64,000 nucleotides of DNA, from positions 643 through 64,642 of the forward strand of contig CAZWPN010000005.1 of NCBI GenBank assembly GCA_964635275.1. The letters run 5' to 3'. Source of the DNA: an uncultured Victivallales bacterium (GTDB lineage Bacteria; Verrucomicrobiota; Kiritimatiellia; UBA8416; CAZWPN01). Below the pieces are notes generated by a model that did no database searches, was not told the origin of the DNA, and saw only the letters and a program-made list of their open reading frames with translations. Shown piece after piece: positions 5,914-64,000 of the stretch. Every line of letters begins with the position of its first letter. The stretch's first letter is position 1. Made by a program: the position numbers and the translations under genes.

Positions 5914-5917
5914 CAAA

Positions 5918-7141: not shown

Positions 7142-7185
7142 GGCCGAGGGCCGCGGCGAAACAAGTCAAGGAAAGGCAGGTAACT

Positions 7186-8760
7186 ATGTTCGGATGGGGA
7201 TTGCGTAGTCGAAGCAAGCGTGAAATCATCATAAACTCGGAGGATTTGGAAACACGCGTGGCGGTAATGGACAATGGGAAGCTGGATGAGTACCAGGTTG
7301 AGCATCCTACCGAGGAGCGCATGGTAGGCAGCATCTTCAAGGGTAGGATTCAGAATCTTGAGAATGATCTGCAGGCGGCTTTTGTGGATATAGGGATGCG
7401 AAAGAACGCCTTCCTGCACTACTGGGACATGATTCCGGACGATGACCCGCTGCTCGAGCTTGATGATGAGGTGCGAAGCCGGATGCCCAAGAAACGGCGC
7501 TATAGCAACGAAGAGATTCGTGAACGTTTTCCGCCTGGATCCGAAACCGTTGTACAGGTGACGAAGGGACCGATCGGCACAAAGGGACCACGTGTGACCG
7601 CGAGTCTAAGCATACCGGGGCGGTATTTGGTCATGATACCCGGGGCAAAGACAAAGGGAATTTCGCGCAAGATTGCCGATGAGAAAGAGAGGCAAAGGTT
7701 AAAGAAGATCCTCTCACGACTGGAAGCCCCGGCCAACACCGGGCTCATCGTGCGGACGGTCGGCGCCGGCGCTCGCAAGAGCAGTTTTGTTACCGACATG
7801 GAAGGCCTGACGGCGAAGTGGGATGCACTGCAGAAGGCTGTGCGGGAGCAGCCTGCGCCAAGTTGCATCTACCAGGAGCCCGATCTTGTGGAACGTGTTA
7901 TCCGGGACTGGGTTACGGATGATGTGGATCGCGTCGTAATTGATTCGCCAAAGAACTATGAGCGAATCCGTAACGTCGCGGCGCAACTTGGCCGCCGGGT
8001 CCGGGGGCGCATTCAGCTTTACGAAGGAGAGTTGCCTATCTTCGACCACCACGAGGTCGAGCGCCAGCTCGAGGAAACCTTCCGGCGGCAGGTCCCTCTC
8101 AAGTCCGGCGGTTGCATTGTGATTGACGAGACGGAGGCGCTGGTGGCCATCGACGTCAACACGGGCCGGTACAAAGGCAAGGGATCTCAGGAGCAGTCTA
8201 TTCTGGAGGTCAACACTGAGGCCGTTGAGGAGGTTGCACGACAGTTGCGGCTGCGTAACATCGGCGGACTGGTGGTGATTGACCTGATTGACATGAAGGC
8301 GCGCAAGAATCAGGTGACCGTGTACCGGGCGATGAAGGATGCCCTGAAGCGGGACAAGGCCAAGGTGAACGTGATGCCGATTTCCGAACTCGGCATTATG
8401 GAGATGAGCCGCCAGCGGGTCGAGGAGAGCATTCTTTCTTCCATGTACATGGACTGTCCGTACTGCAAAGGCCATGGACTCGTCAAGGCCCCGCTGGGCA
8501 TCAGCGTGGAGGTTCAGCGCCAGATTAGAGCCATTTTCCGCCGACGGCGCAAGCAGGACCAGCCGGTTTCATTGCTGGTCGTGCTTCATCCCACAGTGTT
8601 GGAGCGCATGCGGCGGGAGGATGAGCAACTGCTCGTGGAGTTGGAGGGTGAGTATGGCGGGCGCTTGAGCTTCAAGTCCGATCCGACAAAACACATGGAA
8701 TTCTTTGCAATCAAGGACGCAGCAAAGGACGAAGTCTTGTATTCGACGAGCGAACAATGA
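7186..8760 (+). CDS. rng: Ribonuclease G/E family endoribonuclease (RNase G-like)
   Basis: S1 domain 'GSIFKGRIQNLENDLQAAFVDIG', the catalytic core 'IDVNTGRY' and 'LGGLVVIDLIDM', and a Zn-link 'CPYCKGHG'. The ~524 aa length is typical of RNase G. Confidence 0.82.
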   Translation: MFGWGLRSRSKREIIINSEDLETRVAVMDNGKLDEYQVEHPTEERMVGSIFKGRIQNLENDLQAAFVDIGMRKNAFLHYWDMIPDDDPLLELDDEVRSRMPKKRRYSNEEIRERFPPGSETVVQVTKGPIGTKGPRVTASLSIPGRYLVMIPGAKTKGISRKIADEKERQRLKKILSRLEAPANTGLIVRTVGAGARKSSFVTDMEGLTAKWDALQKAVREQPAPSCIYQEPDLVERVIRDWVTDDVDRVVIDSPKNYERIRNVAAQLGRRVRGRIQLYEGELPIFDHHEVERQLEETFRRQVPLKSGGCIVIDETEALVAIDVNTGRYKGKGSQEQSILEVNTEAVEEVARQLRLRNIGGLVVIDLIDMKARKNQVTVYRAMKDALKRDKAKVNVMPISELGIMEMSRQRVEESILSSMYMDCPYCKGHGLVKAPLGISVEVQRQIRAIFRRRRKQDQPVSLLVVLHPTVLERMRREDEQLLVELEGEYGGRLSFKSDPTKHMEFFAIKDAAKDEVLYSTSEQ

Positions 8761-10949
8761 TGCTTTCAGGCACCACCTTGCGTTGCCGGGCCGCAAGAGC
8801 CCTGGCGTTGGCTGTCTTGCTGTCGTCGTCGGCTTCGGCGGCCACCGGCCTCGGCTCCGCCTTGTCTTTCGGGCTGGCACCGACCACTAACGCGCCGATC
8901 CTCGCAAATGGCGAACGCGTCGAGATGGATAAACTAACGGGATGGGTTACGGTGTCAGGCAAGGCCATAGTAAGCTGGGGCGAAGAGACGCTCCAGGCTG
9001 ACCGGATTCGTGTCAATACGACGAACCGGGTAATGGAGGCCGACGGCCACGTCGTACTGACGCGGCCTTCTGGCCGATGGACCGGTGACAAGCTGACGTA
9101 CCGGTTCGGATCCGATTCGGGTGAGGCCCAAGGGATGGCTGGCACCGCGGATCCGTTCCGGGTCTGGGCGTCGCATGTCGATCGGGTATCACGAACGGAG
9201 AGCCGCCTGAAGGACGCGACGATCACCACATGCACCAACGAGAAGCACAGCCTGCATTTCTTGATCAAGGCCAGGGAACTTGACATCAAGGATGGCGAAT
9301 CGCTGGGCGCCAGAGGCGCAACATGGTACATGGGGCCCGTCCCGGTATTTTATCTTCCGGTGTGGCGCCGTAATCTTAGGGCGGAATCGGGTTGGCATTT
9401 TCGCCCGGGATACGATTCGCGCATGGGCGCCTTTCTCCTCTCCTCATACCGGCAGGGCCTTTTCCCATGGCTCCGCAGTGAGACACACATAGACTATCGT
9501 TCCTCCCGTGGTTGGGCTGCGGGAGAGGATCTGCTGTGGCGTGGGGAGGACTTCAGAGGGTCGATCAGAGGGTACTATGCCGACGACCTGGATCCTTTGG
9601 ATCCGAACGACGACCCTTTGCTGGACAGCTTGGGAAGCGAACGATACCGCATAGGGCTTCGCCATGAGTGGGCGATGAGTCCCAAGGATCAGTGGCACAT
9701 TCGTGCAGACTACCTTAGCGACACGGATGTTCTCGAGGACTTCTTTGAACTGGAGTCCCTGGAGAGACGGCAGCCGGAGAATTTCGTAGCGTTCACTCAT
9801 CGTGAGGATTCCTTCTCGGTCAGCGCCATAGTCATCCAGCGATTGAACGACTTCTATGCCACACTCAACCGACAGCCGGAGGTGGCGGTGGACGTTTCCC
9901 GACAATCGATCGCCGGAAGCGACATATACTACGCGGGGCGCACTGCCGCTGCTATGCTCGAGCAGACTGCGATCAGCCAGCTTTCGGGTGAGCCGTATTC
10001 GGCGTTCCGGCTCGACTCGGACCATGTGCTGTACTACCCGAAGACGTACGCCGGGTTCCTCAATGTTGTCCCCCGGTTCGGATACCGGGCGACGTACTAT
10101 TCAGTTACACGGGAATTCGATGCGGTGTCGTCAGGCACCGGAACGGTTGAAGACAGCACCACGTTCATTGAGTCGGAAGGCGGCGGTCGTCTTAGGTCCG
10201 TATTCGAGGCCGGCGTGGAAACCTCGTTCAGAGCCTTCCGCGTTTGGCTGAATGACGGCGACCCGATCCGGCATGTGGTCGAGCCGTATGCGAACCTGAC
10301 AATCGTTCCGGAGCCTACACTGACAGCGGACAAGTTGCTCCAATTCGACGACACGGATGGGTTGGCGGAGGTGCGGACGGTTCGCTTCGGAGTTCGCAAC
10401 AAGCTGCAGACAAAACGCGAGAATATGGCGCGCGACTGGATCGACGTTAACTTGTACGCGGACTGGGATCTCATGGCGAAAGGGGAGGAGGAGCCTGTGC
10501 CCTTTGCCTATCTTGCAGCGGACATAACGCCGATCGACTGGTTTCGCATCGATCTTGACGCCAAGTATGATGTGGAGTTGGAGAAGATATCGAAAGCAGA
10601 CCTGCGTCTCTACTGCGATCCAGGGCGATGGTGGAGCGCGGCCGTCGGCTATCGTTTTCGCAATGAGTCCAGCCAGTTGTTGAGCGCGGAGCTGAGTCTC
10701 AAGCCGCTACGCAGTTGGACGGTAACTTCCGGAACTCGCTATGAGTTTGAGGGTGACGGCCAACTGCAGGAGCAGAGCGCAGCGGTTCAGTATAACTGGG
10801 ATTGCATGGCCCTGCGGGTTGGTGGTCGTGTGATTCCAGGATACACCCTGAGCAATGGCGGAGATGTTCCTGACGAATGGCGGGTGATGGTTGAGTTCTG
10901 GTTCACGGCCTTTCCGGAATTTGGCATCAGTGGACGAAGTGGTCTGTAG
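8757..10949 (+). CDS. lptD: LPS-assembly outer-membrane protein LptD (OstA family)
   Basis: Signal peptide, an OstA-like N-terminal domain ('ADRIRVNTTNRVMEADGHVVLT...WTGDKLTY'), and a large C-terminal beta-barrel with aromatic-rich strands. Confidence 0.7.
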   Translation: MMLSGTTLRCRAARALALAVLLSSSASAATGLGSALSFGLAPTTNAPILANGERVEMDKLTGWVTVSGKAIVSWGEETLQADRIRVNTTNRVMEADGHVVLTRPSGRWTGDKLTYRFGSDSGEAQGMAGTADPFRVWASHVDRVSRTESRLKDATITTCTNEKHSLHFLIKARELDIKDGESLGARGATWYMGPVPVFYLPVWRRNLRAESGWHFRPGYDSRMGAFLLSSYRQGLFPWLRSETHIDYRSSRGWAAGEDLLWRGEDFRGSIRGYYADDLDPLDPNDDPLLDSLGSERYRIGLRHEWAMSPKDQWHIRADYLSDTDVLEDFFELESLERRQPENFVAFTHREDSFSVSAIVIQRLNDFYATLNRQPEVAVDVSRQSIAGSDIYYAGRTAAAMLEQTAISQLSGEPYSAFRLDSDHVLYYPKTYAGFLNVVPRFGYRATYYSVTREFDAVSSGTGTVEDSTTFIESEGGGRLRSVFEAGVETSFRAFRVWLNDGDPIRHVVEPYANLTIVPEPTLTADKLLQFDDTDGLAEVRTVRFGVRNKLQTKRENMARDWIDVNLYADWDLMAKGEEEPVPFAYLAADITPIDWFRIDLDAKYDVELEKISKADLRLYCDPGRWWSAAVGYRFRNESSQLLSAELSLKPLRSWTVTSGTRYEFEGDGQLQEQSAAVQYNWDCMALRVGGRVIPGYTLSNGGDVPDEWRVMVEFWFTAFPEFGISGRSGL

Positions 10950-10990: not shown

Positions 10991-11926
10991 ATGCATCTTG
11001 TTACCGGTGGGGCTGGGTTCATAGGGTCCAATCTAGTCAGGGCATTGGTGGCTGCAGGGGCGGACGTCCGCGTGCTGGACAGCATGGTAGGTGGGCGTGA
11101 GCGCAACCTTGACGACCTACTGTCGAAGATCGACTGGGTCGTTGGCGATATTCGCGACGCACGGGTGGTTCAGGATGCCATGCGAAACGTGGCTGCGGTG
11201 TTTCACATGGCTGCGTTGCCGTCAGTTGAGGGATCCGTTCAAGACCCGTCCACATCGCATGCAGTCAATTTGACGGGCACGCTTAATCTGATGGTCGCGG
11301 CCCGCGATGCCGGTGTTGAGCGGTTCATCTTTTCGTCCTCCTGTGCAGTTTACGGGAATGCACCGGAACTGCCAAAGACGGAGCATATGATGCCCGATCC
11401 TCTTTCTCCGTACGCGGCACAGAAACTTGCGGGCGAGAACTACTGCCGGCTCTTCCACGATCTCTATGGCATGCGGACCTTCTCCCTGCGGTATTTTAAT
11501 GTCTTTGGTCCCCGCCAGAACCCGCGATCGCAGTATGCAGCGGCAATACCTTGCTTCATCGCGGCTGCGCGGGCTGGCCGGGCGCCGATCATTTATGGCG
11601 ATGGGGAGCAAACGCGGGATTTCGTATTTGTGGAAGACGTTGTGCGGGCTAATCTCTGTTGCGTAATGGCGCCGGAGAATACCGCTGGACGGGTGTACAA
11701 CATTGCCGGGGGGGAACGAATTACGGTCAAACGTGTTGCAACGGCAGTGCTCGACATCATTGGCTCCGGGGTTGAGCCTGTCTATCAGGCGGCCAGACCC
11801 GGGGAAGTCAGGCACTCACAGTCGGATACATCTTTGGCCAGGGAACATCTAAACTGGACGCCATCGGTGGGTTTTGAAGAGGGATTGCGGCATACAGTCG
11901 AGTACTTTCTCCGGAGGGAAACGTAG
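10991..11926 (+). CDS. NAD-dependent sugar-nucleotide epimerase/dehydratase (SDR family)
   Basis: Rossmann motif 'VTGGAGFIGSNLV' and the YxxxK motif ('YAAQKLAGE'). Size and layout resemble UDP-glucose/GlcNAc 4-epimerases. Confidence 0.8.
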   Translation: MHLVTGGAGFIGSNLVRALVAAGADVRVLDSMVGGRERNLDDLLSKIDWVVGDIRDARVVQDAMRNVAAVFHMAALPSVEGSVQDPSTSHAVNLTGTLNLMVAARDAGVERFIFSSSCAVYGNAPELPKTEHMMPDPLSPYAAQKLAGENYCRLFHDLYGMRTFSLRYFNVFGPRQNPRSQYAAAIPCFIAAARAGRAPIIYGDGEQTRDFVFVEDVVRANLCCVMAPENTAGRVYNIAGGERITVKRVATAVLDIIGSGVEPVYQAARPGEVRHSQSDTSLAREHLNWTPSVGFEEGLRHTVEYFLRRET

Positions 11927-14181
11927 TGGGCGCGAGCGCACATCTTGCGATGGAGCGCCCAGCGTTGCTTTTCGGGCACGGGGAGTCGGATGGTCTTGTG
12001 GCTGTCGAGCGCGTTGATGGCTGTGGCGGTCCGGATGGGATGGCATGCTTTTTCCGGCGTGGAAAGGAGACCGTACGCGAGGACTTTGATTTCAGGCCTT
12101 TCATTGTTATGGCAAAGGAGTTGTTGGATGGCCTCGCCGTCATGCCAGTGGCCCATCAGGCCTTGTCTGGAAGTGGGCCCCTCAACTGCCTTGCCGAATT
12201 TGCCTCGTGGCTGGACTGCCTCAAAGCCAAGGATGGGCTGGTCAAGAAGACCGGCGCCAGGCCTACCGATGCAGCGGCGCCGTATTTGTTTCTTAACGAT
12301 CCGGTTCAGCAGTACCTGCTTCGCAGCGGCCGGACGCAGTTTGGGCAGATGAGTTTTCGCGATGTGAAGCGAATGCAACTCGATATCGAATGCCGGACAA
12401 CCCCGGGATACGAGTTTTGCAATGCGGACCGTGAGGGAGATTGCATACTTGCAATCGGCCTGGGTGATTCCGTGGGATGGGAGAGAATACTCTCCTCGGC
12501 GGAGATGTCTGAAAAGGTGCTGCTGGAGAATCTGGTTGCGTGCGTTCAGGAAAGGGACCCCGATGTAATAGAAGGGCACAATCTGTTCAACTTCGACCTG
12601 CCGTACATCGAGAAGCGGGCCCGACGTCACGGAGTGAAGCTTGCATTAGGACGCGACGGGAGTGAGCCGCGTAGTCGTCCTGGCCGTTTCACGGCCGGTG
12701 AGCGTACAATCGGATATGAGCGCTTTGAAATCTTTGGGCGGCATATCGTGGACACGTTTCTGCTGGCCCATGCGTACGACGTGTCGCATCGTGCTTTCGA
12801 TGGATTTGGCCTTAAGGAAGTAGCTGCGCAGCTTGGGCTTGCAGCCCCTGACAGAGAGCACATCCCTGGTGATATGATCGGGGCCACATTCCAGACTGAA
12901 CCGGACAGGGTGCTTCGTTACTTGCGGCATGACGTCATGGAGACTGGCAGGCTGAGCGAGGTCCTCTCCCGAAGTCAGTTTGTCCAGGGACAAATGTTGC
13001 CGCTCGGCTATCAATCTGTCTGCGTTCGTGGCAACGCGGCACGGATTGATTCGCTGATGACTCGCGAGTACCTGCGTCGTGGGCTATCACTGCCGCTGCC
13101 GGATGCTCCCCGCGAATTCGAGGGGGGGTATACGGACATCTTCGCTACCGGCGTTGTTTCGAACGTGCATCATTGCGACGTTCGTTCGCTATATCCATCT
13201 ATCATGTTGCAAGGAAAACTCGGTCCTCGACGGGACGAGGCTGGCGCGTTTCTTGAAATGCTCAGAGCTCTTACCCTGTTTCGCATCGAAGCAAAGGCAA
13301 GGGCGAATAACGCCGTCGACGCTTCCGAGCGTGTGGAATGGGATGCCGTTCAATCCACCTTCAAGACGCTCATCAACTCTTTCTACGGGTATCTCGGGTT
13401 TGGACAGGCTCGGTTTAGCGATTTCGCCCGCGCCGAAGAAGTGACGCGGCAAGGCAGGGAGATTCTATGCCGGATGGTGGCGAGGTTGAAGTCGCTGGGG
13501 GCCCGGCCTATCGAGATTGACACGGACGGCGTATACTTTGTGCCCCCGGATGGGCTGAATGATTCAGGAATGACAGCATTTCAACTGGATGTGGCCGCAG
13601 ACCTTCCGGACGGAATTCAGGTCGAGTTCGACGGTAATTACCGTGCGATGTTCAGTTACCGAATGAAGAACTACGCGCTATTGGGAAATGATGGTGCTCT
13701 TATCATCAAGGGTGCGGCACTCAAGTCGCGTGGACTTGAGCCTTTTCAGAGGCGGTTTCTGCGCGATATGTTGCGTCTGAAGCTGAGCGGAAACGATGCG
13801 CAACTTTCGGGCCTGAAGACGAAATACGAGAATGCCATTCGCAATAGGGAGTGGCCAATTCGCGAGTTGGCGAAAACAGAGACATTGCAGGATGCTCCCT
13901 CAACCTACAAGGCCAAGATGGCGAGGAGCGCCAGGTCGCGCAATGCAGCGTACGAGCTTGCATTGGCCTCGGGGCGTGAATACCGGGCTGGGGACCAAGT
14001 GTCGTATTACGTGGCCGGTAATCGAAAGACCGTGGCTGTGCATGAGGCGGCAAAACTGGTAAGCGACTGGAATCCCTGTCAACGGGATGAGAATGTGCCT
14101 TATTATCTTGCCAAGCTTGATGCCTTATACGCAAAATTCGAACAAGAGGAGACGCAGGATGAGTGGGCCTTCCCGGAATAG
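11926..14181 (+). CDS. polB: B-family DNA polymerase (DNA polymerase II-like)
   Basis: Exonuclease motifs ('LDIECRT' DxE; 'EGHNLFNFDLPYIEKR') and polymerase motifs ('YPSIM', 'NSFYGYLG', 'IDTDGVYF' motif C). Confidence 0.75.
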   Translation: MGASAHLAMERPALLFGHGESDGLVAVERVDGCGGPDGMACFFRRGKETVREDFDFRPFIVMAKELLDGLAVMPVAHQALSGSGPLNCLAEFASWLDCLKAKDGLVKKTGARPTDAAAPYLFLNDPVQQYLLRSGRTQFGQMSFRDVKRMQLDIECRTTPGYEFCNADREGDCILAIGLGDSVGWERILSSAEMSEKVLLENLVACVQERDPDVIEGHNLFNFDLPYIEKRARRHGVKLALGRDGSEPRSRPGRFTAGERTIGYERFEIFGRHIVDTFLLAHAYDVSHRAFDGFGLKEVAAQLGLAAPDREHIPGDMIGATFQTEPDRVLRYLRHDVMETGRLSEVLSRSQFVQGQMLPLGYQSVCVRGNAARIDSLMTREYLRRGLSLPLPDAPREFEGGYTDIFATGVVSNVHHCDVRSLYPSIMLQGKLGPRRDEAGAFLEMLRALTLFRIEAKARANNAVDASERVEWDAVQSTFKTLINSFYGYLGFGQARFSDFARAEEVTRQGREILCRMVARLKSLGARPIEIDTDGVYFVPPDGLNDSGMTAFQLDVAADLPDGIQVEFDGNYRAMFSYRMKNYALLGNDGALIIKGAALKSRGLEPFQRRFLRDMLRLKLSGNDAQLSGLKTKYENAIRNREWPIRELAKTETLQDAPSTYKAKMARSARSRNAAYELALASGREYRAGDQVSYYVAGNRKTVAVHEAAKLVSDWNPCQRDENVPYYLAKLDALYAKFEQEETQDEWAFPE

Positions 14182-49433: not shown

Positions 49434-51377
49434 TCAGTCCTTCTGCGGCACTGGTTTGAGCGCGGTTTCAAGCTGAGCGGGGGTCAGAATACGAACGCTA
49501 CCGTCGCAGAAGGCGACGCAGACGGGTTGTGTATCCGGTCCCGGCGGTGCGTAGGCCAGAACCGTCTCGTTGGGATTCTTGACTGAATCCAGCGGACGGC
49601 CGGTCACGGCCGGATTCAGCCGGAAGAACTGCCCGCTCCTGGCGTCGCGCAAGGCCGTGTCCTTATCGCCGACATACCGCTTGAGATCCGCAATCTCCGC
49701 AGGCAGTTTCTGATACTCCATCGCATACGTGTGGCAGGCCATGGCGACTTGCCTGAGACTGTTCCTTGTTTGGTTCTGGGTGTTCTGCGCAACGGCTGCG
49801 CGCCCCGCGCCAGCCAGGAGCCGTACGATGCCGGCCGCGAGATTCCGGCTGCCGCCTTCGACCCGGAGCGTCACTCCTGCAGCGTCGGAAGTCAGGCCTG
49901 CTGTAATCCGTTCCAAGCCGGACTGAGGAAAGCATCGGGCAGCGTCCAGCGTCGCAAATGCCATCGCGCCGGGCTGGCGCGCCGCCAGTGTCTTGCCAAT
50001 GCTGTCGCCTCCTTCAATGAAGTGCTTAAGGAAGCGTTCCGCGCCGGCCCGCGTCTGGCCGCGTGAGGGCGCCACCAGCACCACAGTGCCTTTCAGTGCG
50101 ATCAGTGCCTCGTCCGTTCTCCATACCGTCACGCCCCGCAGTTCCTCCTTACCCGCCTTGCCTTCCTTCTCCACCCGCGCCATCAGAACCCGCACAGAAG
50201 TCAGCATGCTCGTGGCATCCTTACCTTCGAAATATAGGGCCCCGCCGTGGTCGAGTTCCAATCCCCTGGCTGGATCCGTCACCACCACGGCAGCCGCGAC
50301 GAGGTTGGAGACGAGGTCAGCCTGGACGTCCAAGCCTGTTTCCCTGCGGAAATCTCGGATGAACTCCTCGCGTGGGCCTGTTCCGCCGTGTTCAAAGATT
50401 GCGATGTGGCCGAATCCAGCCTCGAGGAGATCCCATACCTTTGCCGTATCCCGGACACTGACCGCAAGCGCCAAACTCGCGTCCGCAGGAATGGCATCCA
50501 GCAGCGCCGGCGGGCGCTCGGGCGGCTTCAGTGCGGCCGCCAGCGGACTGCCCGGATCAATCTCTGCCCGCAGCACGATGGCGTCTCTGGTAACGCGCAA
50601 CGCCGCGCCACGCCATGCCGGCAAATCAAAGAACGCGCCGGCGGCCATGAACTCGGCACTGTCATGGTCTCCCATGGCAGGCAGAAGGCCGTTCACGACA
50701 GCGCCCACGTCGGCACGCATCTGGAGCAGCGGACGCGATGTTCCCGACACATCCAATCGGGCGGACGGGGGCGTTTTGGCAGCCGCAGCCGCCTGGAGCA
50801 GAAACGTCTCCGCCGCCATCGTATCGGAGGCCAGTACCAGCATTCCGTTGATTTCGGTGAGCCAGAGCGCCTCCCTCGGGTGGCGGCTCACGGAATGGAG
50901 TGTACGTCCCGCGTATACCACGGTGCGGCAGGGGCCGGCGTCGGACGCGCCCGCGACCGGATTGTTGGACAGCAACCTGGGCAGAATGTCGGGGGCGCCT
51001 CCACGATCACACACGACGACGAAACGAGGCCGTCGGCGATCGGCCATCCCCAGGGGCCAGAGTCCGACGGTGCGCACACGGGCGACGGCGTCGCGAAGCG
51101 CGGCGGGGTCCAGGCGCGTCCGCTCGCTCATGGCTTCAATGGCCTCGCCGTAGGCGGCCTCGGGCGTGCGGCCGTCGAACAGGGCCTTGGCCAGTTCGGG
51201 GTCCTCCCGGATCATCGCGCGCAATTGTGCGACGTCCAGCACGGCGGCGCCAACTGCCACGGTGGGCGTCAGGGATTCGAGTGCGATTCCACGATCGGCG
51301 TCCTTCGAACTGTCCGGAACGCTGAGGAACAGAACGAGAAGCAGTTTGAAGAATCCACTGACACTGATAGCTTCCAT
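49434..51377 (-). CDS. Secreted protein with a large unknown N-region and a DUF1559-like C-terminal domain
   Basis: Signal peptide 'MEAISVSGFFKLLLVLFLSV'. The C-terminus 'LRQVAMACHTYAMEYQKLP...VCVAFCDGSVRIL' resembles the H-x9 and '(F/L)ADGSV' ends of planctomycete DUF1559 proteins. The pilin-like N-helix is absent. Confidence 0.55.
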   Translation of the reverse strand: MEAISVSGFFKLLLVLFLSVPDSSKDADRGIALESLTPTVAVGAAVLDVAQLRAMIREDPELAKALFDGRTPEAAYGEAIEAMSERTRLDPAALRDAVARVRTVGLWPLGMADRRRPRFVVVCDRGGAPDILPRLLSNNPVAGASDAGPCRTVVYAGRTLHSVSRHPREALWLTEINGMLVLASDTMAAETFLLQAAAAAKTPPSARLDVSGTSRPLLQMRADVGAVVNGLLPAMGDHDSAEFMAAGAFFDLPAWRGAALRVTRDAIVLRAEIDPGSPLAAALKPPERPPALLDAIPADASLALAVSVRDTAKVWDLLEAGFGHIAIFEHGGTGPREEFIRDFRRETGLDVQADLVSNLVAAAVVVTDPARGLELDHGGALYFEGKDATSMLTSVRVLMARVEKEGKAGKEELRGVTVWRTDEALIALKGTVVLVAPSRGQTRAGAERFLKHFIEGGDSIGKTLAARQPGAMAFATLDAARCFPQSGLERITAGLTSDAAGVTLRVEGGSRNLAAGIVRLLAGAGRAAVAQNTQNQTRNSLRQVAMACHTYAMEYQKLPAEIADLKRYVGDKDTALRDARSGQFFRLNPAVTGRPLDSVKNPNETVLAYAPPGPDTQPVCVAFCDGSVRILTPAQLETALKPVPQKD

Positions 51378-57400: not shown

Positions 57401-59453
57401 CCAGCGTGGTGGCCTCCCAATCGTCCTCGCTGACATTGACCACGCAAACGCCCGGTTTGCCTTCGGCCAAGGGAATTTCGATTTCCTGCTCGAAAGGCTT
57501 GTACTTGGCAAAGCCGTCGACCTTGAACTCCATGGTACGGTCCGGCTGGATGAGCGAAATGTCGAGGTCCTCGACGTTGCCGGTGCCGTGTGTCTTCCGG
57601 AAGAATGCTTCGAGGTCGAGGGTATAGTGCTTGACCGTCACCTTCGGGATGTTACGGGTGCGCAGGAGGACCTTGACCGGTTCGCCAGTGCGGCAGGTGC
57701 GGGGCGAGGATAGGGTCAGTTCCTTGCCGGTCATGGCCGCGACCCGGTTCCGGGCCATGCCGACGCAACTTCCCCATGCCACGCGGCGGTATTGGTCGAG
57801 CGCCTTTTCCAGGTCGCCGAGTTTCTCCTCGTAGATCTGTGCGGTCCGATGGAGCGCCTGAGACGATTCCTCGGTGTTCGGATACTTGCTGATGAGCGGC
57901 GCCCACTCCTCGATGGCAGCCTTGTACTCCGCCTCGATCTCGGGCCGCGCCGCCTTCTTTTCCTCCAAGTCATGCGCATGCGCGTAGCGGATCTGGCCGA
58001 AGATAAAGAGGATCTGGCGGGAACGCTGATCGAGGGGATGCGCGGCCAGAAAGGCCTCGAACAGGCGACGCGCCTCGGACTCCTTCTTATCCGCCAACGC
58101 CCGGATCCCCTTTTGGTACTCGGCGCCTATGATCCGGTTCTGGCACTCAGCCCACTTCGGGCCGTTGGGGAAACGCGTCACGTAGTTCTGCCACTCGATG
58201 ATCGCTTCGTCGTACTTCGCCTGGGCGTAGAGAATGGAGCCCACCTGGGCCAACGATTCCTTCTCCCAGCCGTCTTTCATTTCCGCGGGGGATTTGCCGG
58301 TTTCCGGATCGCGCTCGGTCGCCAAGGCGCCTTCGGGCAAGGCATAGCCCTTCCCGGCCGCGAAATCGCGATAGGCCTGCACGGCCTCTTCGCTTCGGCC
58401 TCTGGACTGGAACGCCTGGCCGATCTCGAAAGCTATGCGCACGGACCGGCGGTCCCGCGGAAAACGTTCCAGGAAGGCGCGCGCCGCTCGCATGGCCGGC
58501 TCGAGATCAGGGGAGCCACCTTGCGCAAGACTGTAGGTTCGGGTCAGGAGCCAGGCGATGTCTGCCCGGAAGTCCGGCGACACGGAGGCATCCTTGTCAA
58601 TCATGGAGGCCAGATCCTCCAGTTCGCGGCGGGCGTGCGCGGGATTCCCCGCTTTTCGGTAGGCATCGGCCAGCCCGTAGCGCGCTGCCCATCGTTGCTT
58701 GCCGGGCGGCGGCGGATTCTCCTGCCGCAACCGTGGTGCGACGCCCGCGCCGCCGACGCCCGACCAATCGGGGTCGAACTCCCGCAGGTAGTAGCTGAAG
58801 TCGTTGACGGACTGTACGACGTTGCCGGCCTTTTGGATCGCCATCGCCCGTTTGAACAGCACTTCCTCGCGCAACGCGCGGCCGATCTGCATCTCCATGA
58901 CCTTGCCGTACAGGGCGTACGCCTTGTTGTAGTCTGGCGGCGGGGCGTCGAGCGCGTTCGGCGGCGGGGTGGTGGCCAGCTCGTCGGCGAAGGCCACGAT
59001 CACGGATGCAATCTCTTGCTTCCTCGATTCCGAGAGCAGGCGGTTGGCCTCCTCGGAATAGATTGCTTCGGCCTCCTTAAACTTCCTGGCGTCGTACAGC
59101 GCGCGGGCCTTGAGGAAGCGGATTTTGCGGTACCAGGGCGAGCCGGTGTCATCCGCCAGCTCGTCTGTGGCAGCCACCGCGGCTGGCAGATTGCCCTTGT
59201 AGAATAGCGCCAGCGCCTTCAGGAAACCGGCCTCGCCGTTGGTTACGCTGTGCGCGGCCAGGACAGGCCCGATGGCCTTGAGAGCCCCGTCGAAATCCCG
59301 CATGCGCAGGCTTTCCCTCGCCGATTCCAGTGGGTTAGGGGCAGCGGTGGGCTTGTCCGACGGTGCGGCAAGCCCTGTGAGCAAGAGAGATGCGCAAACC
59401 GGCAAGGCCAGAAAGTCATGTCGAAACGAACGCAGTGTGAGGAACGATTTCAT
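51426..59453 (-). CDS. Giant (2675 aa) secreted alpha-2-macroglobulin-family protein flanked by N- and C-terminal TPR arrays
   Basis: Signal peptide, TPR repeats at both ends, and central MG (Ig-like) domains. An alpha/alpha-toroid TED-like region ('GLVASQRNDGGWSWEGQSSGSDWAASARAFWAL'). No CxEQ thioester motif was seen. Confidence 0.7.
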   Translation of the reverse strand: MKSFLTLRSFRHDFLALPVCASLLLTGLAAPSDKPTAAPNPLESARESLRMRDFDGALKAIGPVLAAHSVTNGEAGFLKALALFYKGNLPAAVAATDELADDTGSPWYRKIRFLKARALYDARKFKEAEAIYSEEANRLLSESRKQEIASVIVAFADELATTPPPNALDAPPPDYNKAYALYGKVMEMQIGRALREEVLFKRAMAIQKAGNVVQSVNDFSYYLREFDPDWSGVGGAGVAPRLRQENPPPPGKQRWAARYGLADAYRKAGNPAHARRELEDLASMIDKDASVSPDFRADIAWLLTRTYSLAQGGSPDLEPAMRAARAFLERFPRDRRSVRIAFEIGQAFQSRGRSEEAVQAYRDFAAGKGYALPEGALATERDPETGKSPAEMKDGWEKESLAQVGSILYAQAKYDEAIIEWQNYVTRFPNGPKWAECQNRIIGAEYQKGIRALADKKESEARRLFEAFLAAHPLDQRSRQILFIFGQIRYAHAHDLEEKKAARPEIEAEYKAAIEEWAPLISKYPNTEESSQALHRTAQIYEEKLGDLEKALDQYRRVAWGSCVGMARNRVAAMTGKELTLSSPRTCRTGEPVKVLLRTRNIPKVTVKHYTLDLEAFFRKTHGTGNVEDLDISLIQPDRTMEFKVDGFAKYKPFEQEIEIPLAEGKPGVCVVNVSEDDWEATTLAIRSDIELITKSSRREALVFVENMVSKQPSPGVKVLLSDGKAIVATGTTGADGVYRYSGEELKTPADLRVFAIKDGHVAAQNMDLSGLRLSSSLVPKGYLYTDRPVYKPGDKVAIRGILRDVREGSYIVPQNETFTVSVTDSKGRLMREESLKLSEFGTFHTAFSLPDMASEGTYAIMARAVRKNREPLSFSGTFAVKIFTPEKIRLTLDMPRTVYFRGEIVELEARAEYYWGEPVTGKPVRYTLPDGRVLSGVTDDKGKVRFTFDTTPGIPGQVLPFFASLEGENVSVTSVAMLAMRGFDLSVKPSQETVLAGESVDIIVKAVAADGKPAGRDVTLTVLRLEQDAPNVILSMLPWASEGIAGGQAEAKVQEFKLKTDPLSGAVSQNVTLDKGGPYVLRVTGQDQFDQTVTGQGALQVSGSDDAVKLRLFTQSTQLRVGGRAELRLHARLKDALALVTHEAETILRYHIVPVREGYNDLGFEVGHEHFPNFRVSVALMDGRELRAAAKDLTVERELKVTVKPLKAAFLPGEDGRVELTVTDQLGRPVKAELSLALVDEGVFAVMADRTPAILDFFQRDARRFAEFRTGATCGFRYAGVTRAVVKAIQAEGERMDRARRELDSRRLVEATQLADAPRSMQDKVSRPPGQSVGWANGTEEQNADGDGRLMNEPADISGMVNAPVVMQGAFPSRSPGGRRSDLMIAGGGAGLGGGEEQVRREIPQEGRWFPDIVTDAAGKAVVSVRLPERTTEWRLTARGCSVETLVGEARSKTLTRKDFFIEIKSPGSLQEGDSIRVLARVHNLTSNDLGSVRLELEMAATGKDGATTAKQEKAVEVKAGSGVEVVFDAVEIPAVPGVTWTVRARAGDQADALTLDTPVQLYGLEYAAHGGGTASGDVGLVLELPAGQKYSSKWMLMSVGPTLSRTVLDLALSDRPGARGFACSVPASWGCQWGGTDGSELLSKVAGLDYARRGKAPELDVIQLLEGSRALASGLVASQRNDGGWSWEGQSSGSDWAASARAFWALIQARDLGVAIHTDAVARAQGFLMANLQSFEATDNDAKAVVLHALSVNKAADFANCNRLHRERQSMGNAALAYLALAFLNLDRPDFAKELLDLLEARGEAGRDVAKRTLSWDPKARHEWMKDRVETTALTLMALARGRPASPVARAAAEYLLNARGCGGIAPAKARGPVVAALAAWFGHAQEADADYQIGVLVNGQTVTNLTVRGSASTLAVAVPLPLIKDGKNLVDFKMEGRGEYAYAASLIGFSPEFKDPGSWTYPSVSSRNYRHAPLEYRGRPIGVNSTSPVKKLDSGQRMDVVVSTVHSGMNWYMVVEEPLPAGTTLVEGSLQGNFNHFETAPGKIIMYFAGNYIGDFSYQLVAYAPGVYRALPTTMRDAVNPARMKVGPAMRIEVLAPGEKSPDPFQINNDELFALGRLYFEDGVYDKALENLAELFKRNRAHSERDTARMLLWIHTMQAWYDARKIVEMFEILRERYPELEIPFDKILIVARAYRDIGEFERACLVARATIAASFINDSGVSATLQDQGRLLGAIDYQERLWREYPDTAEVVSSWFALAQTLLEKAPNAHQLPKEGVRVPEKIAMLGRAAATLNQFLALYPNDPLADDAAFSLCNTWLDLKGYGRVVDLSRRFTALYTNSPVLSSFQYMTALGLFWQKDYQGALNAARAVAEGDSADHDFAGYIVGQIFHAEGKPPDAIEWYRKVQDKYRDAKEAIAYFEEKRLALEEVTVFRPGAPVEVTIKYRNIREAALQVYRVDLMKLYLREKNLSNITSVRLAGIKPEVEVIVPLGDGKDYVEKEKTARLALKEDGAYLVICRGDDLFSSGLVLLTPLKMEVQEDAVSGQVRANVLDAAKGGYRAGVHVKAIGSADREFKSGETDLRGIFAADGLRGKATVIARDGEARYAFYRGANWLGAAERADPQPQQAPLPKQSMDYQYNLRQGQQEIQGKNIQLFEQMRRTKNGGVQIKYAF

Positions 59454-59545
59454 GCGAACTCCTTTTCCGAATGCGGCAGAAAGGCGAAGTATCGCGCATC
59501 CTGCCTTGTTCTTCCACTTCCACTTCTACTTTCTTTCCTGTAGGA

Positions 59546-59594
59546 CCGCACGGTGTGCGGTCGGATCTCGCGCCACACCGTGGCGCCCTACAGA
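59546..59594. repeat. Two adjacent hairpins: GACCGCAC-GGT-GTGCGGTC and REP-like copy 2 (CGCGCCACACCGTGGCGCCCTA)
   Basis: Perfect inverted repeats read directly from the sequence. The second is identical to 49371-49392. A CT-rich 'cttccacttccacttc' tract lies upstream. Confidence 0.6.
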
Positions 59595-59661
59595 GCCGGA
59601 ACGGCGGCTACACCCTCCATTTATGCGCTTCCATGTTCTCCGGGGAATATTGTGCCCCTCC

Positions 59662-60792
59662 CTATTTCCGGATGCCGCAGACAATCTTAATCTCATCGTC
59701 TGACAGGACGCGGTTGTAGATGCGGATGTCGTCCAGTCTGCCGTTGAAGTAGTTGTTACTGCCGGGGTCGAAGTCCGCGTCCTTGCGCTTGCCGATCCGC
59801 AGCGGTTCGGTGGTGGGCTGTGAAAGAATGTGCCCGGTCTGGGTTTGTTCGGTGTAGATCAGGTCCCCGGTCTTCTGGCCGTCGAGATACACGCGCACGC
59901 GATTGTCTTCCCGGGAGATCGTGACTGCCAGATGGTGCCACTGGCTGCTTTTCAGAGACTTCAGAGGGAAGGTGTGTCCTTCGGAGCACATGTAGGGGGC
60001 CACCTGACTGCAGACATACACATGCCACAACCCTTCGTTGACATGGAAATTCAGGTCAAATTGGCCGCCATGATTGGACGAGGTGGGACTGTGATCCTGC
60101 GTCAGACTCCCGGACGGTTGTTTCGTGATAAAGAAGTGTGAACTGCGCCCGTGGCGCTGGTCATCCACCGGACAGACCCAGGCGGCAATGGTGATCTCCG
60201 TGAGCGCGTCGTAGACGCCGCTGGAGGGAACTTCGATCCACGCGCTCTTGCCGTCGAACGACATGGCACAGTCGGGGCGGTTACTGCGATCTGGCGCAGG
60301 TTTGGCGCCGCGCAGGATGCCGTTGCACTTGTTCTCGCTGGCGTCGTTGGCTGTGCCATCATTGAAGTTGTACCAGGCTATCAATCCATCCTTGGTTCCC
60401 GCGCCATCCAGGCCGCCGGGCAGAAGCCGAAGTTTGCGGATATGTTCGATGCGCACCGTGACCTTGCCGAACGCCGTTTCGAGCGGGATGGGGCCGAGAT
60501 TGATCACGCCTTTGATCGTGTCGCCGTTCAGCAGGTCGAAGGACACGGTTTCATGATCCTCACCTATCTTCATGCCCACGATCTGACTGAACGGCAGTTT
60601 CATTTTGGCATAGGGTGTCTCCACAGGCACGGAGTCTACGTTTGGGGTGCCGATGATGTGCGAGCCGTCCACGAGATCCAGTTTGAGACGGAGCTGTTGC
60701 GGTGCTTCTTTCGTATTGTCCGGTCCACCCCAAGCGCTTCCGCCTAGCGCCAATGCCAGCAGGGCCACCATCCTGATTGCAGCGATCTTCAT
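59662..60792 (-). CDS. Secreted LamG-like (Laminin_G_3/concanavalin A-like) domain protein, paralog 1 of a tandem array
   Basis: Signal peptide and a conserved N-module 'LRLKLDLVDGSHIIGTP...GEDHETVSFDLLNGDTIKGVINL'. The LamG_3 C-terminus has 'LIAWYNFNDG' ... 'GRLDDIRIYNRVLSDDEI'. Confidence 0.7.
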   Translation of the reverse strand: MKIAAIRMVALLALALGGSAWGGPDNTKEAPQQLRLKLDLVDGSHIIGTPNVDSVPVETPYAKMKLPFSQIVGMKIGEDHETVSFDLLNGDTIKGVINLGPIPLETAFGKVTVRIEHIRKLRLLPGGLDGAGTKDGLIAWYNFNDGTANDASENKCNGILRGAKPAPDRSNRPDCAMSFDGKSAWIEVPSSGVYDALTEITIAAWVCPVDDQRHGRSSHFFITKQPSGSLTQDHSPTSSNHGGQFDLNFHVNEGLWHVYVCSQVAPYMCSEGHTFPLKSLKSSQWHHLAVTISREDNRVRVYLDGQKTGDLIYTEQTQTGHILSQPTTEPLRIGKRKDADFDPGSNNYFNGRLDDIRIYNRVLSDDEIKIVCGIRK

Positions 60793-60877
60793 TGCGCTCG
60801 TCTCCTTTAAAATCCAAACGTTGCCGTTGAGGGCTTCGTCCCGTCGCCGGCGGCTTCAACTTCCTCTGCTGTCTCCG

Positions 60878-61915
60878 TCACTTCCCGGCGTCGTAGAGCA
60901 GCTTCACTTCGATGTCTGTTAGGGCGCGGTCAAAGATCATGACTTCATCGATCAGCCCCTCGAATCCGTAGTCCGCAACTGATGTTCCTCCAATCTCCAG
61001 GGGAGCGCTCACAGTCTTGTCCACGTTGTGGGGAACGCCCATGCTTCGGGCGATCGGACGCTCCTCAGCGTTATGAAAGATGCGCCATGTGCCGGCTTTG
61101 CACACCAGGGTAACGAGGCTCCATTCCTCTCTGGAAAACGACGCTGAATACTGCGCCCAATGGTCCGTCTGGAATGTCGTGTAGTAGGCACCTTCAGAAG
61201 GGAGGGTGAGCAGATTCATGCCCAACCCATTCCGGGCCAGGTCCCATTTTGTTATCAGGCATTTGTGCTGGAAGTCGCCTTCTGGTTTCCACCACAGGGC
61301 GTAGGTCTTGTCCTCCGTGAGTTTAAGGCTGAAATCCTTGCTGTCCGCCACTTCAATACGTTCCCGCCTGCCGCTAAAACGGAATGCCCCGCCCGCCTTG
61401 CCTTTCGACGTCCATTTTGCGCCATGCACGTCGCCCTGGTTGTTCTTTCCGCTCGCATCCGCTACTTTCCCGCCCTCGTCCCGGTCGAACGCATAGTACA
61501 GGACCAGTCCTTTTCGTAGAGCCTCCGGCAATGCGCCGCCCGTCCGCACGATCGTGAACTGCCGGATGTGTTCGACTCCGATGGAGACCGGGCCGAAGAC
61601 AGTGGTCAGCTTGATCGGCGCCAGAGTGATGACGCCTTTCAGCTTGTCGCCGTTCTGTAAATCGAAGTCTACTGTTTCGTGATCTTCCCCAATCCTCATG
61701 GTCCGGATTTGTCTGAGCTGCACATTCATCTTGGCGTAAGACGTCTCCACAGGTACCGTCTCGATGCCGGGGGTTCCGATGATACGTGAGCCGTCAACCA
61801 GATCCAGTTCAAGGCGCAGGGGCAGTTCCTTCGGAACGTTGTTTTCGCCGGCCGCCGTGATCAGAACCGTTACCGCGAGAATCAGAACACAAAGCGTGAA
61901 TCGGTGCATGTCCAT
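60878..61915 (-). CDS. Secreted LamG-like domain protein, paralog 2
   Basis: Same N-module ('LRLELDLVDGSRIIGTP...GEDHETVDFDLQNGDKLKGVITL') plus a LamG_3 C-terminus ('GLIDEVMIFDRALTDIEV'). Confidence 0.7.
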   Translation of the reverse strand: MDMHRFTLCVLILAVTVLITAAGENNVPKELPLRLELDLVDGSRIIGTPGIETVPVETSYAKMNVQLRQIRTMRIGEDHETVDFDLQNGDKLKGVITLAPIKLTTVFGPVSIGVEHIRQFTIVRTGGALPEALRKGLVLYYAFDRDEGGKVADASGKNNQGDVHGAKWTSKGKAGGAFRFSGRRERIEVADSKDFSLKLTEDKTYALWWKPEGDFQHKCLITKWDLARNGLGMNLLTLPSEGAYYTTFQTDHWAQYSASFSREEWSLVTLVCKAGTWRIFHNAEERPIARSMGVPHNVDKTVSAPLEIGGTSVADYGFEGLIDEVMIFDRALTDIEVKLLYDAGK

Positions 61916-61936
61916 CTCCTTTTCTCGTGCCGTTGC

Positions 61937-63001
61937 CTAGTTCCTGTCCCTTTGCATATCACACAAAACCTTGATCTCTTCCTCCGACAGTGCTCGCCTG
62001 TATATGCGCACCTCGTCCACCGTACCGTTGAAATACATGTCAGACCAGTCAATGAAGGGCTTCACGGCGGTGGTGCCGATCACCAGTTTGCTTGTGGGAT
62101 TGTCTACGAGCGGTTGTCCCGGTCGCCCGCCGCGTGCTTCTCCATCCAGGCTGCCGTTGACATAGAAACGCCCGACCTGTCCGTCATAGGTCATGCAGAC
62201 GTGATACCACTGCCCAAGAACCGGATACGGAGTGACCCCTGCCTGAAAGGTTCGCGTGGGTAGGGCCAGCGGTCCCACACCCCGGCCCCCCGTGTTCCAC
62301 TTCCCGCCATACTCGCCGCCTAACTGAATGCCAAACCCGCCCCCCCTTGTGCCGGCGACTTCGCCCCGGCCGATGAGGCTGCCGTAAGTGGTATACTGCT
62401 GAAACCGGCACCAGAGGGAAACGGTGATCTCCCGCCAGCCGTCGGTGTTCAATTCCTTGGCATCGGAAAGGATGTAACTGCCCGGGCCGGTGAACCGCGC
62501 GCCTTTCCCTTTACGCCCTGTCTCATACTGGACGGAGCCCACCGTGTAACCGTCATTTCCTCGTCCGCTGCTATCTTTGACCCCACCCGATTCGTCTTCG
62601 TCAAATGTGTAGTGCAGGACCAAACCCGCATCTCCACGGCTACCCGTGAAGGCGATACTGCGGCACTGCGTCAGCGGCACATCCACTCTTCCGAACAGAG
62701 TCTGCATCGGGAACGCGGGCAGATCCAGAACGCCCGTAAGCCGGTCGTTGTTCACGAACAGGACGACCGCAGTCTCTCGGTCCTCGTTGAACTGGACACT
62801 CCGGATTTGCCCAAGCGACATCTCGATCTTGCCGAGCGCACCAACGAAAGGGATAGACGTAGCCGTCGTGGTTCCGATCAGGCGCGAACCGTCGGCAAGA
62901 TCCATCGAAATGCGAACCTGTTCATTGCTCTTCTCCCCAGCCTGGGCAGCCAGAGCGATTCCGACCATAGCCGCCGCTATGCTCATCCTTTTGGTGTTCA
63001 T
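61937..63001 (-). CDS. Secreted LamG-like domain protein, paralog 3
   Basis: A divergent copy of the N-module ('ISMDLADGSRLIGTT...NEDRETAVVLFVNNDRLTGVLDL') plus a LamG_3 C-terminus ('GTVDEVRIYRRALSEEEI'). Confidence 0.7.
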   Translation of the reverse strand: MNTKRMSIAAAMVGIALAAQAGEKSNEQVRISMDLADGSRLIGTTTATSIPFVGALGKIEMSLGQIRSVQFNEDRETAVVLFVNNDRLTGVLDLPAFPMQTLFGRVDVPLTQCRSIAFTGSRGDAGLVLHYTFDEDESGGVKDSSGRGNDGYTVGSVQYETGRKGKGARFTGPGSYILSDAKELNTDGWREITVSLWCRFQQYTTYGSLIGRGEVAGTRGGGFGIQLGGEYGGKWNTGGRGVGPLALPTRTFQAGVTPYPVLGQWYHVCMTYDGQVGRFYVNGSLDGEARGGRPGQPLVDNPTSKLVIGTTAVKPFIDWSDMYFNGTVDEVRIYRRALSEEEIKVLCDMQRDRN

Positions 63002-63135
63002 GGCCTCTCCTTTGGTTTGCCCTTCGAAAACGGCAGTTACTATTAGGTACAGACGGCTGACCCAGCCGTCCGCGGACGCCTCGGTGAGGAGTCCCTACCT
63101 GGCGTCCATATTCATGGGAATCTTCAGTATGGGTG

Positions 63136-64000
63136 CTACTCCTCCGTCCGGTCGCTGAAGTCCGTCTTGGCGTAGTTCCAGATCTTGATGTTGTCGAAGG
63201 CGACGGTCCCGGATGCAAGTGCATGATGTTTCAACAAGCCGATTCTGCTGCCCTTCGGGAGGTCCAGGAAATGCGGGGCATTGCCAAAGATTCCGTGGGA
63301 TGAGTTAAGTTTGCCGTCAACAAAGACGGCTGCCTTGCGGGCGCCGTCTTCGATGCCGGGGATGCCTGCTGTATTCCACACCACGGCATAGTGATGCCAT
63401 TCGGCGATGTTCCCTCCGCCAATGGCGTTGGAATAGGTCCAAGATCCGAAATTGCCGGTCCCGATCCATGCCATGTTCGCTCGCAGGCATATACCGCCGT
63501 TTGCATTGCCGTCATTGGCGGCGAAAAACAGCACTTCGCCTTCGATCTTCTCGGAAGAGCCCCAGCCGATGAGGCCGGGCGCGGCACCACCTGGCAAACT
63601 GGTCGGGAAGTTGCTTATCTTGCACCAGAACTCGATGCAACCGGCGGGCGTCGCCAGCAGATCTGGTGGAAACGTGACACCGAACTGTTCCTGCATGTTC
63701 AGTTCAAGCCCCTGGCCGAAACGCCCGGGCACAAAACGACCGGCATTCAGCTTTCCGCCCGGTCCGACGCGGCTGTTCTTTACGTCGCTTTCCGACCCGA
63801 GCCGGTTCCACAACACCAACCCTTTCTGCCCTGTCCCGCCGCTCATCACGACGTCAAGCTGCTTGATATGCTCGGTGCCGATTGAGACCTGCCCGAAGAC
63901 GGTTGTCAGTTTGATTGGCTTCAGATTGATGACACCTTTAATCTTGTCGCCGTTCTGCAAATCGAAGCTTACGGTCTCGTGATCCTCTCCGATCCTTATG
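63136..64000 (-). CDS. Secreted LamG-like domain protein, paralog 4 (5' end outside the window)
   Basis: The frame stays open to the window edge and encodes '...IRIGEDHETVSFDLQNGDKIKGVINLKPIKLTTVFGQVSIGTEHIKQL', matching the paralog N-module. The listed 'M' is an in-frame TTG. Confidence 0.65.
   Translation of the reverse strand, partial: IRIGEDHETVSFDLQNGDKIKGVINLKPIKLTTVFGQVSIGTEHIKQLDVVMSGGTGQKGLVLWNRLGSESDVKNSRVGPGGKLNAGRFVPGRFGQGLELNMQEQFGVTFPPDLLATPAGCIEFWCKISNFPTSLPGGAAPGLIGWGSSEKIEGEVLFFAANDGNANGGICLRANMAWIGTGNFGSWTYSNAIGGGNIAEWHHYAVVWNTAGIPGIEDGARKAAVFVDGKLNSSHGIFGNAPHFLDLPKGSRIGLLKHHALASGTVAFDNIKIWNYAKTDFSDRTEE

Follow-up and report, generated by a model that had tools for sequence, protein, structure and literature searches.

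Bacteria of the Planctomycetes-Verrucomicrobia-Chlamydiae (PVC) superphylum, among them Kiritimatiellia, Lentisphaerae, Verrucomicrobia and Planctomycetes, play a major part in degrading complex and sulfated glycans, and they encode many exported proteins that carry no annotation. In polysaccharide-degrading bacteria, the SusD/SusE-like glycan binders and the cohesin-dockerin systems follow a logic in which a constant module is combined with varied carbohydrate-binding heads, and the genes concerned lie in clusters. In this study we analysed 64,000 nucleotides of a contig from an uncultured Victivallales bacterium (CAZWPN010000005.1), referred to here as the window, at one end of which four consecutive genes, g1 to g4, encode proteins of comparable design: a conserved N-terminal module, the N-module, is followed by a divergent LamG-type domain. 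We suggest, with a probability of roughly one half, that this array is a repertoire of extracytoplasmic lectin-like cassettes that share a constant docking or assembly domain. The C-terminal LamG_3 domain is ordinary and already annotated in homologs, and there is no unexpected mechanism in these modular, exported, lectin-like proteins; what is new is the widespread constant N-domain.

The resemblance to the SusD/SusE-like and cohesin-dockerin systems is one of logic only. The array proteins have no relationship to either in sequence or in fold, they lack the signal of a lipoprotein, and the window encodes neither a TonB-dependent transporter nor a scaffoldin partner. A nearer comparison is with the LamG_3, or concanavalin A-like, proteins of bacteria, as the C-terminal 200 or so residues of the array proteins form a bona fide LamG_3 jelly roll and the proteins are exported. 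However, the conserved part that defines the array family is the N-terminal stretch of about 95 residues, which lies outside the Laminin_G_3 family (PF13385), and this module also joins lectin domains other than LamG. For the N-module itself, the described proteins that come closest are the Sm/LSm/Hfq family (PF01423 and PF17209; SmD1, for example 1b34) and ImpE/TagJ (PDB entries 4uqx, 4uqy and 4uqz). TagJ/HsiE1 is an accessory protein in type VI secretion, and its all-beta ImpE-fold barrel is a protein-peptide docking surface (PMC4239648).

The gene array and its N-terminal module

Open reading frames (ORFs) and their translations bear out what had been proposed for this end of the window, namely four consecutive minus-strand genes of which the last runs off the end (Table 1). 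The genes are separated by gaps of 85, 21 and 134 nt. As the source contig measures 65,630 nt, no more than about 1.6 kb of it extends past the window, room to finish g4 and perhaps to begin one further gene. The proposal that each begins with a signal peptide stands for g1 to g3, whose N-termini were seen by inspection to be hydrophobic, Sec-type signal-peptide-like stretches without a lipobox cysteine; the N-terminus of g4 is beyond the window. Residues 5-20 of g2, in the signal-peptide region, are helical in the AlphaFold2 model. Directly behind the signal peptide lies the conserved segment, and a multiple alignment of the four proteins, one of the checks suggested at the outset, covered the described module in all of them. 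The sequence motif first given for the module fits g1, g2 and g4 well, but g3 is divergent (NEDRET, VNNDRLTG). When the whole window was scanned with a hidden Markov model (HMM) of the N-module, four copies only were found, those of g1 to g4.

Table 1. Positions of the array genes, their N-modules and adjoining features in the window (pLDDT, predicted local distance difference test; pTM, predicted template modelling score; TPR, tetratricopeptide repeat; A2M, alpha-2-macroglobulin)
Feature	Position	Strand	Evidence and remarks
g1, complete, 376 aa	59662-60792	minus	ORF; signal peptide + N-module + LamG_3; N-module HMM 137.5 bits
g1 N-module, two ~45-aa beta units	60415-60705	minus	alignments; hhalign of half-profiles
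g2, complete, 345 aa	60878-61915	minus	ORF; signal peptide + N-module + LamG_3; AlphaFold2 full-length pLDDT 88.9
g2 N-module, 10 beta strands (5+5) in model	61532-61828	minus	AlphaFold2 pLDDT 88.9, pTM 0.75; no Pfam match
g3, complete, 354 aa	61937-63001	minus	ORF; divergent N-module (HMM 89.8 bits) + LamG_3; member of a conserved orthogroup
g3 N-module, divergent version	62636-62926	minus	alignment; 32% identity with g2 module
g4, N-terminus cut at window end	63136-64000 and beyond	minus	translation; second N-module half (HMM positions 44-96, 73.5 bits) + degenerate LamG-like domain
A2M-TPR protein, 2675 aa	51426-59453	minus	N- and C-terminal TPR/YfiO-like repeats; core bMG3, MG2, A2M_BRD, A2M
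Strong RNA hairpin	59538-59593	minus	in g1/A2M-TPR gap of 208 nt; may mark a boundary between transcripts
647-aa protein	49434-51377	minus	just downstream of the A2M-TPR gene

The N-module, about 95 residues long, is an internal tandem duplication of a unit of about 45 residues, as shown by hhalign, which aligned the profile of one half with that of the other (probability 94.6%, E = 7e-8, 40 columns). The unit follows the pattern h-x-h-x-L-x-[DN]-G-[SD]-x-h-x-G-(10)-T-x-[YF]-[AG]-x-h-x-h-(3)-I-x-x-h-x-h, and a nearly invariant linker rich in acidic residues and histidine, G-E-D-H-E-T, connects the two. AlphaFold2, which had been named as a way of examining the module, gave a confident all-beta model from an alignment of 37 sequences, with ten strands divided equally between the units (scores in Table 1).

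The original prediction had not recognised the N-module as a Pfam domain, and neither did the scans of Pfam (2025 copy) and NCBIfam (2026) turn up any well-known domain in it. With whole proteins as queries, nothing was matched at E <= 1 over the N-terminal 100 or so residues. No family emerged either when 37 isolated modules were compared with the same databases at the looser limit of E <= 10; the few matches, to SrpI-like, bPH, DUF3247, Hfq, LSM and ROF, were scattered and below threshold. Secretion and sorting domains (prepilin N-terminal, PEP-CTERM, type IX secretion C-terminal, LPXTG, lipobox and autotransporter) were absent at E <= 1 in both databases and by motif. Searches of the module model with Foldseek returned nothing at E <= 1e-3, either from the PDB or from the predicted viral structures of BFVD, and in the searchable literature on LamG or PF13385 in Kiritimatiellota and PVC bacteria we found no paper describing the module. 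The N-module is thus a candidate new domain family, both undescribed and widespread.

Some indication of its nature comes from the Sm/LSm/Hfq proteins. The five beta strands of each unit are a point of likeness, the pattern h-x-h-x-L-x-[ND]-G-[SD]-x-h-x-G recalls the Sm1 motif, and individual module members match LSM, Hfq and DUF3247 weakly. A sequence-profile search of the PDB matched SmD1 only, at E = 0.006 for the whole module and E = 9e-4 for a single unit, the latter in the Sm1 motif region. However, all the family matches fall below threshold (LSM at E = 0.19 and Hfq_1 at E = 0.017, in few of the 37 modules; in one relative, P0202, LSM at 20.5 bits where the cutoff is 23.4), and the Foldseek matches to Sm and Hfq structures are marginal (E 0.3-0.7). 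The units as modelled are also without the N-terminal helix and without a match to the Sm2 motif, so that the module cannot be counted as a member of this family, and they differ further in being fused in tandem and in their extracytoplasmic setting. From sequence and model together, the units are probably Sm/SH3-like small barrels.

The best match of the module model to a solved structure was the ImpE-fold barrel of TagJ/HsiE1 (E = 0.024, TMq 0.55-0.60), which is not significant; further Foldseek matches were to small barrels of various kinds (Tudor, Sm/Hfq, LytTR, PH and YgdR). Sequence identity to TagJ is 9-10% and there is no match to PF07024, which places the module outside the ImpE family. 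The two differ also in architecture, in that the TagJ barrel has 12 strands and the module 10, and in that TagJ is cytoplasmic and has a helical TPR-like N-domain, whereas the module has no helical domain.

Family distribution, variable heads and age of the paralogs

Analysis of homologs proved informative about the extent of this family. A word-indexed search with g2 retrieved 205 homologs, nearly all of them full-length (about 340-370 aa) and of the same architecture; those with names are "LamG domain-containing protein" entries from metagenome-assembled genomes (MAGs) of Kiritimatiellia, Verrucomicrobia and Planctomycetota. In an exhaustive search, the module profile matched 2311 clusters (formed at 50% identity) with E <= 1e-3, of which 1015 reach E <= 1e-10 and 165 reach E <= 1e-30, and the named sources were again nearly all MAGs of the PVC superphylum. 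The module begins within 60 residues of the N-terminus in 227 of 237 retrieved proteins, with a median start at residue 29, and 14 of the 237 carry two to four copies of it.

Whether the module always precedes LamG could be judged from 115 representatives by their Pfam matches. Laminin_G_3 is the partner in 67, but other heads are found as well: Lectin_C in five, F5/8 type C in two or three, FG-GAP in two, and RicinB, NPCBM and DUF1080 in one each. Several proteins without a Pfam match carry a sub-threshold LamG domain (P0116, for example). The module is also found inside larger proteins. In P0127 (1417 aa) a Ser/Thr kinase domain (residues 64-321) and a transmembrane helix (337-355) are followed by three units of module plus LamG, and in P0135 (1586 aa) a BlaR1/M56 membrane domain, for which five transmembrane segments are predicted, precedes four modules that have LamG and DUF642 domains interspersed. 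Other combinations are HEAT, module, C-type lectin and module (P0159), and module, DUF1080, module and FG-GAP (P0121). Judged by these architectures, the module is a mobile extracytoplasmic domain that stands directly N-terminal to a binding head, at internal positions too. The extracytoplasmic parts of P0127 and P0135 amount to a gene array fused into one chain.

The heads of the array itself belong to Laminin_G_3, the match spanning the C-terminal 170-200 residues of the proteins. Scores against PF13385, for which the gathering cutoff is 27.6 bits, were 76.4 for g1 (residues 180-369), 59.9 for g2 and 95.7 for g3, while g4 reached 27.3 bits (E = 4.5e-6), just below the cutoff, and is a marginal member. 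The typical C-terminal LamG signature, at first ascribed to all four, is clear in g1 to g3 but degenerate in g4 (FDNIKIWNYAKTD). The full-length model of g2 has two well-modelled domains joined by a less confident linker at about residues 125-135 (block mean 67), and its LamG part proved, by AlphaFold2 and Foldseek, to be a concanavalin-like beta-sandwich jelly roll; its matches in the PDB, at E 1e-11 to 1e-9, are a trans-sialidase lectin domain, AbnA domain 4 and the HcN domain of botulinum neurotoxin (BoNT). The TafC family fimbrial protein (NF052521) is matched by the LamG part alone, at 26.8-52.3 bits against a cutoff of 410, which leaves the proteins well outside that family. From sequence and model, the heads may be expected to bind glycan or another extracytoplasmic ligand.

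The LamG parts had been described as much more divergent than the N-modules, and the comparisons agree with this. Identity between g1 and g2 is 60% in the module and 23% in the LamG part, between g2 and g4 it is 76% and 17%, and across 120 homologs compared with g2 it is 61% and 35%; for the divergent g3 the corresponding values against g2 are 32% and 29%. Among g1, g2 and g4 the module shows nonsynonymous divergence (dN) of 0.17-0.28 and synonymous divergence (dS) of 0.9-1.4 by the NG86 method, or a dN/dS of about 0.2. These values, together with the 65-76% nucleotide identity of the module segments, indicate that the module is under purifying selection and that the paralogs are old, and they exclude recent gene conversion as the source of module conservation. 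In the LamG part dN is 0.8-1.2 and dS is saturated, and because of this saturation positive selection on the heads cannot be inferred.

The original prediction further supposed a family that diversifies its head, and as an ongoing rapid process this is not supported, given paralog dS near saturation and the orthologs of g3 in seven other loci. Diversification by a diversity-generating retroelement was considered and rejected. The direct repeats in 59400-64000 are paralogous segments only, 65-83% identical, and the nucleotide divergence of the paralogs is distributed across all sites, which argues against their being targets of such an element; the defining combination of a template and variable repeat pair with a nearby reverse transcriptase was not found, no search aimed at the reverse transcriptase having been made.

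Tandem arrays are typical of the family, with from four to at least 12 genes and often with ten or more. When representative genomes were scanned with the g2 module, and array copies counted by six-frame HMM search, 13 other loci were found in Kiritimatiellia, Lentisphaerae/Victivallales, Chthoniobacteraceae, Planctomycetota and other MAGs labelled PVC. The number of module copies was 10 in locus L001, at least 10 in L006, five in L007, four in L010 and five in L012, and in the locus reached by way of P0011 no fewer than 12 genes of about 340-370 aa each follow one another. The paralogs are therefore not confined to this genome, homologous arrays being widespread in related ones. Clustering of the LamG parts gave conserved orthogroups shared across loci together with many singletons, so that the arrays combine ancient conserved members with lineage-specific ones. 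The orthogroup of g3 is present once per array in the seven other loci, with full-length identity of 46-53% against about 30% to the other paralogs.

Possible roles of the constant module

If the array is read as a set of lectin-like cassettes, each product would be a Sec-exported soluble protein of two domains, in which the constant double-unit N-domain is connected by a short flexible linker to a variable LamG jelly roll. The LamG head would recognise a glycan or other extracytoplasmic ligand, with a specificity that varies by paralog, and the N-domain would supply the function common to all of them, most likely protein-protein docking or assembly, mutual or with a shared envelope partner. 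One tandem array would thus encode a set of ligand-binding cassettes, and in some genomes the same cassettes, fused in series on membrane signal transducers, could serve in sensing or capture at the cell envelope. Ligand recognition by the heads, docking by the N-domain and the cellular location beyond Sec export are inferred from sequence and models. Docking or assembly is favoured because the module is far more constrained than the heads, because it accepts heads of different folds behind it, and because the cassettes come one after another, as tandem genes or joined within one chain on signalling membrane proteins.

Some observations weigh against this interpretation. The fold of the N-module has no significant homolog of solved structure, so that the docking role is drawn from conservation and architecture. 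The conserved polar residues (DGS, NGD and the EDHET linker) could be purely structural, and neighbouring genes vary across loci, with no consistent partner gene emerging. The earlier picture of a variable head on a constant anchoring or secretion module can accordingly be kept in its first half, as the constant module and variable head recur family-wide, but an anchoring or secretion role is conjectural. A more specific version, to which we give little probability, is that the Sm-like N-domains hetero-oligomerise into a ring or chain, or dock onto module-bearing transducers, to form a multi-headed combinatorial lectin complex. If true, such hetero-assembly would in effect equip these bacteria with a repertoire for pattern recognition of glycans, one that in some lineages feeds directly into Ser/Thr kinase and BlaR1-type signalling.

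It is also conceivable that the N-domain is a non-covalent envelope anchor, binding peptidoglycan or an outer-membrane glycolipid in the manner of SH3b and so tethering the heads to the cell surface or the periplasmic face. Anchoring was proposed in the original prediction, and an all-beta domain of five-strand units, nearly always the first past the signal peptide and with weak small-barrel matches that include the periplasmic lipoprotein YgdR (3fif, by Foldseek) as well as bPH, Hfq and LSM in Pfam, would suit such a function. We nevertheless consider it unlikely, as neither Pfam nor NCBIfam gave a match to SH3b, LysM, OmpA or another wall-binding family, and as an extra anchor for each head seems redundant in P0127 and P0135, which are already anchored in the membrane. 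A passive spacer, or a helper in export or folding (recognised, for example, in type II secretion, or acting as an intramolecular chaperone of LamG), would be expected to sit where the module does, directly behind the signal peptide and, in multi-unit proteins included, always N-terminal to a lectin-type domain. This explanation is quite unlikely, however, in view of a conservation across phyla that exceeds what a spacer needs, of heads as structurally unrelated as the C-type lectin, beta-trefoil and FG-GAP propeller, which argue against a dedicated folding chaperone, and of the internal copies downstream of transmembrane helices in the kinase and BlaR1/M56 proteins, which argue against a purely N-terminal secretion signal.

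Two further alternatives concern the heads and the neighbouring gene. The concanavalin-like superfamily includes enzymes (GH16, GH7 and the DUF1080/3-keto-disaccharide hydrolases, DUF1080 itself occurring in P0121), and PVC bacteria are specialised polysaccharide degraders, so the C-terminal domains might be glycoside hydrolase- or lyase-like and the array a set of polysaccharide-degrading isozymes. This is very unlikely: the best matches are non-catalytic (LamG_3, pentraxin, the sialidase N-terminal lectin domain, AbnA domain 4 and BoNT HcN), no glycoside hydrolase family was matched, and every one of the alternative partners is a binding module. Finally, the array might be coupled to the A2M-TPR gene, its lectins, for example, targeting or recruiting the protease-trapping A2M to substrates. 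The two were described as directly adjacent, and the array is indeed upstream of that gene on the same strand, at a distance of 208 nt; in addition, the 647-aa protein encoded beyond A2M-TPR has a homolog, 66% identical, inside the L012 array. The adjacency was not seen in the 13 other loci, where the flanking sequence retrieved, at most 10 kb on each side, contains no A2M homolog and the neighbours are HEAT-repeat, DUF4139 or cell-wall synthesis genes. A very stable hairpin also separates g1 from the A2M gene. On the evidence of these flanks the adjacency looks incidental, a functional link is unsupported, and we regard coupling as extremely unlikely.

Whichever role the N-domain has, thousands of proteins now entered as "LamG domain-containing" or as hypothetical would be better annotated once the domain family is described. 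The combination of a constant domain with variable heads would also offer a handle on how PVC bacteria recognise or sense polysaccharides.

Surroundings of the array

The flanks of the arrays differ by locus. HEAT-repeat proteins are encoded downstream in L008 and L010, DUF4139 proteins upstream in L010, and penicillin-binding protein (PBP) and Mur ligase genes upstream in L005, where the module-LamG genes (5244-10801) come directly after the PBP transpeptidase and Mur ligase genes. Cell-wall genes are present in the window as well, mrdA and rodA (4093-7141) being about 50 kb from the array. Mutually related proteins are encoded just downstream of several arrays (L008, 2789-7956; L010, 11596-18161; L012, 11393-12361; L014, 14334-14948). 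Some of these have HEAT repeats and some share a segment of about 100 residues (…GSATLPHADAFRIQCRKPADHVAVTVG…) that has no Pfam match. It is possible that the downstream HEAT and GSATLPHADAFRIQCRKPADHVAVTVG proteins are an array-associated partner family, of which this window has none.

The hairpin between g1 and the A2M-TPR gene lies within an 81-nt fold (59530-59610) with a minimum free energy of -42 kcal/mol (z = -4.56), and none of 200 shuffled sequences was as stable. The hairpin has no T-run, and a scan found no terminator of that kind. As predicted from its folding, the hairpin could be a terminator-like or repetitive extragenic palindromic (REP)-like element that divides two transcription units. 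The 647-aa protein has no match in Pfam, NCBIfam or the PDB sequence search; its homolog in L012 (12396-14435) makes it the sole non-array neighbour shared between loci. On the same strand after the A2M-TPR gene are also proteins of 1414 and 1324 aa with almost no family matches (weak BiPBP_C only).

The window as a whole is chromosomal, as it contains mrdA, rodA, rng, rpsA, glgB and an ArnT-like gene, and named MAG sequences from Kiritimatiellia, Lentisphaerae and Verrucomicrobia share 70-75% identity with its ribosomal protein S1. A 751-aa ORF on the plus strand (11926-14181), flanked by a sugar epimerase/dehydratase gene on one side and by further housekeeping genes on the other, has only weak matches to family-B DNA polymerase of the Pol II-like type, at 85 bits against cutoffs above 500.

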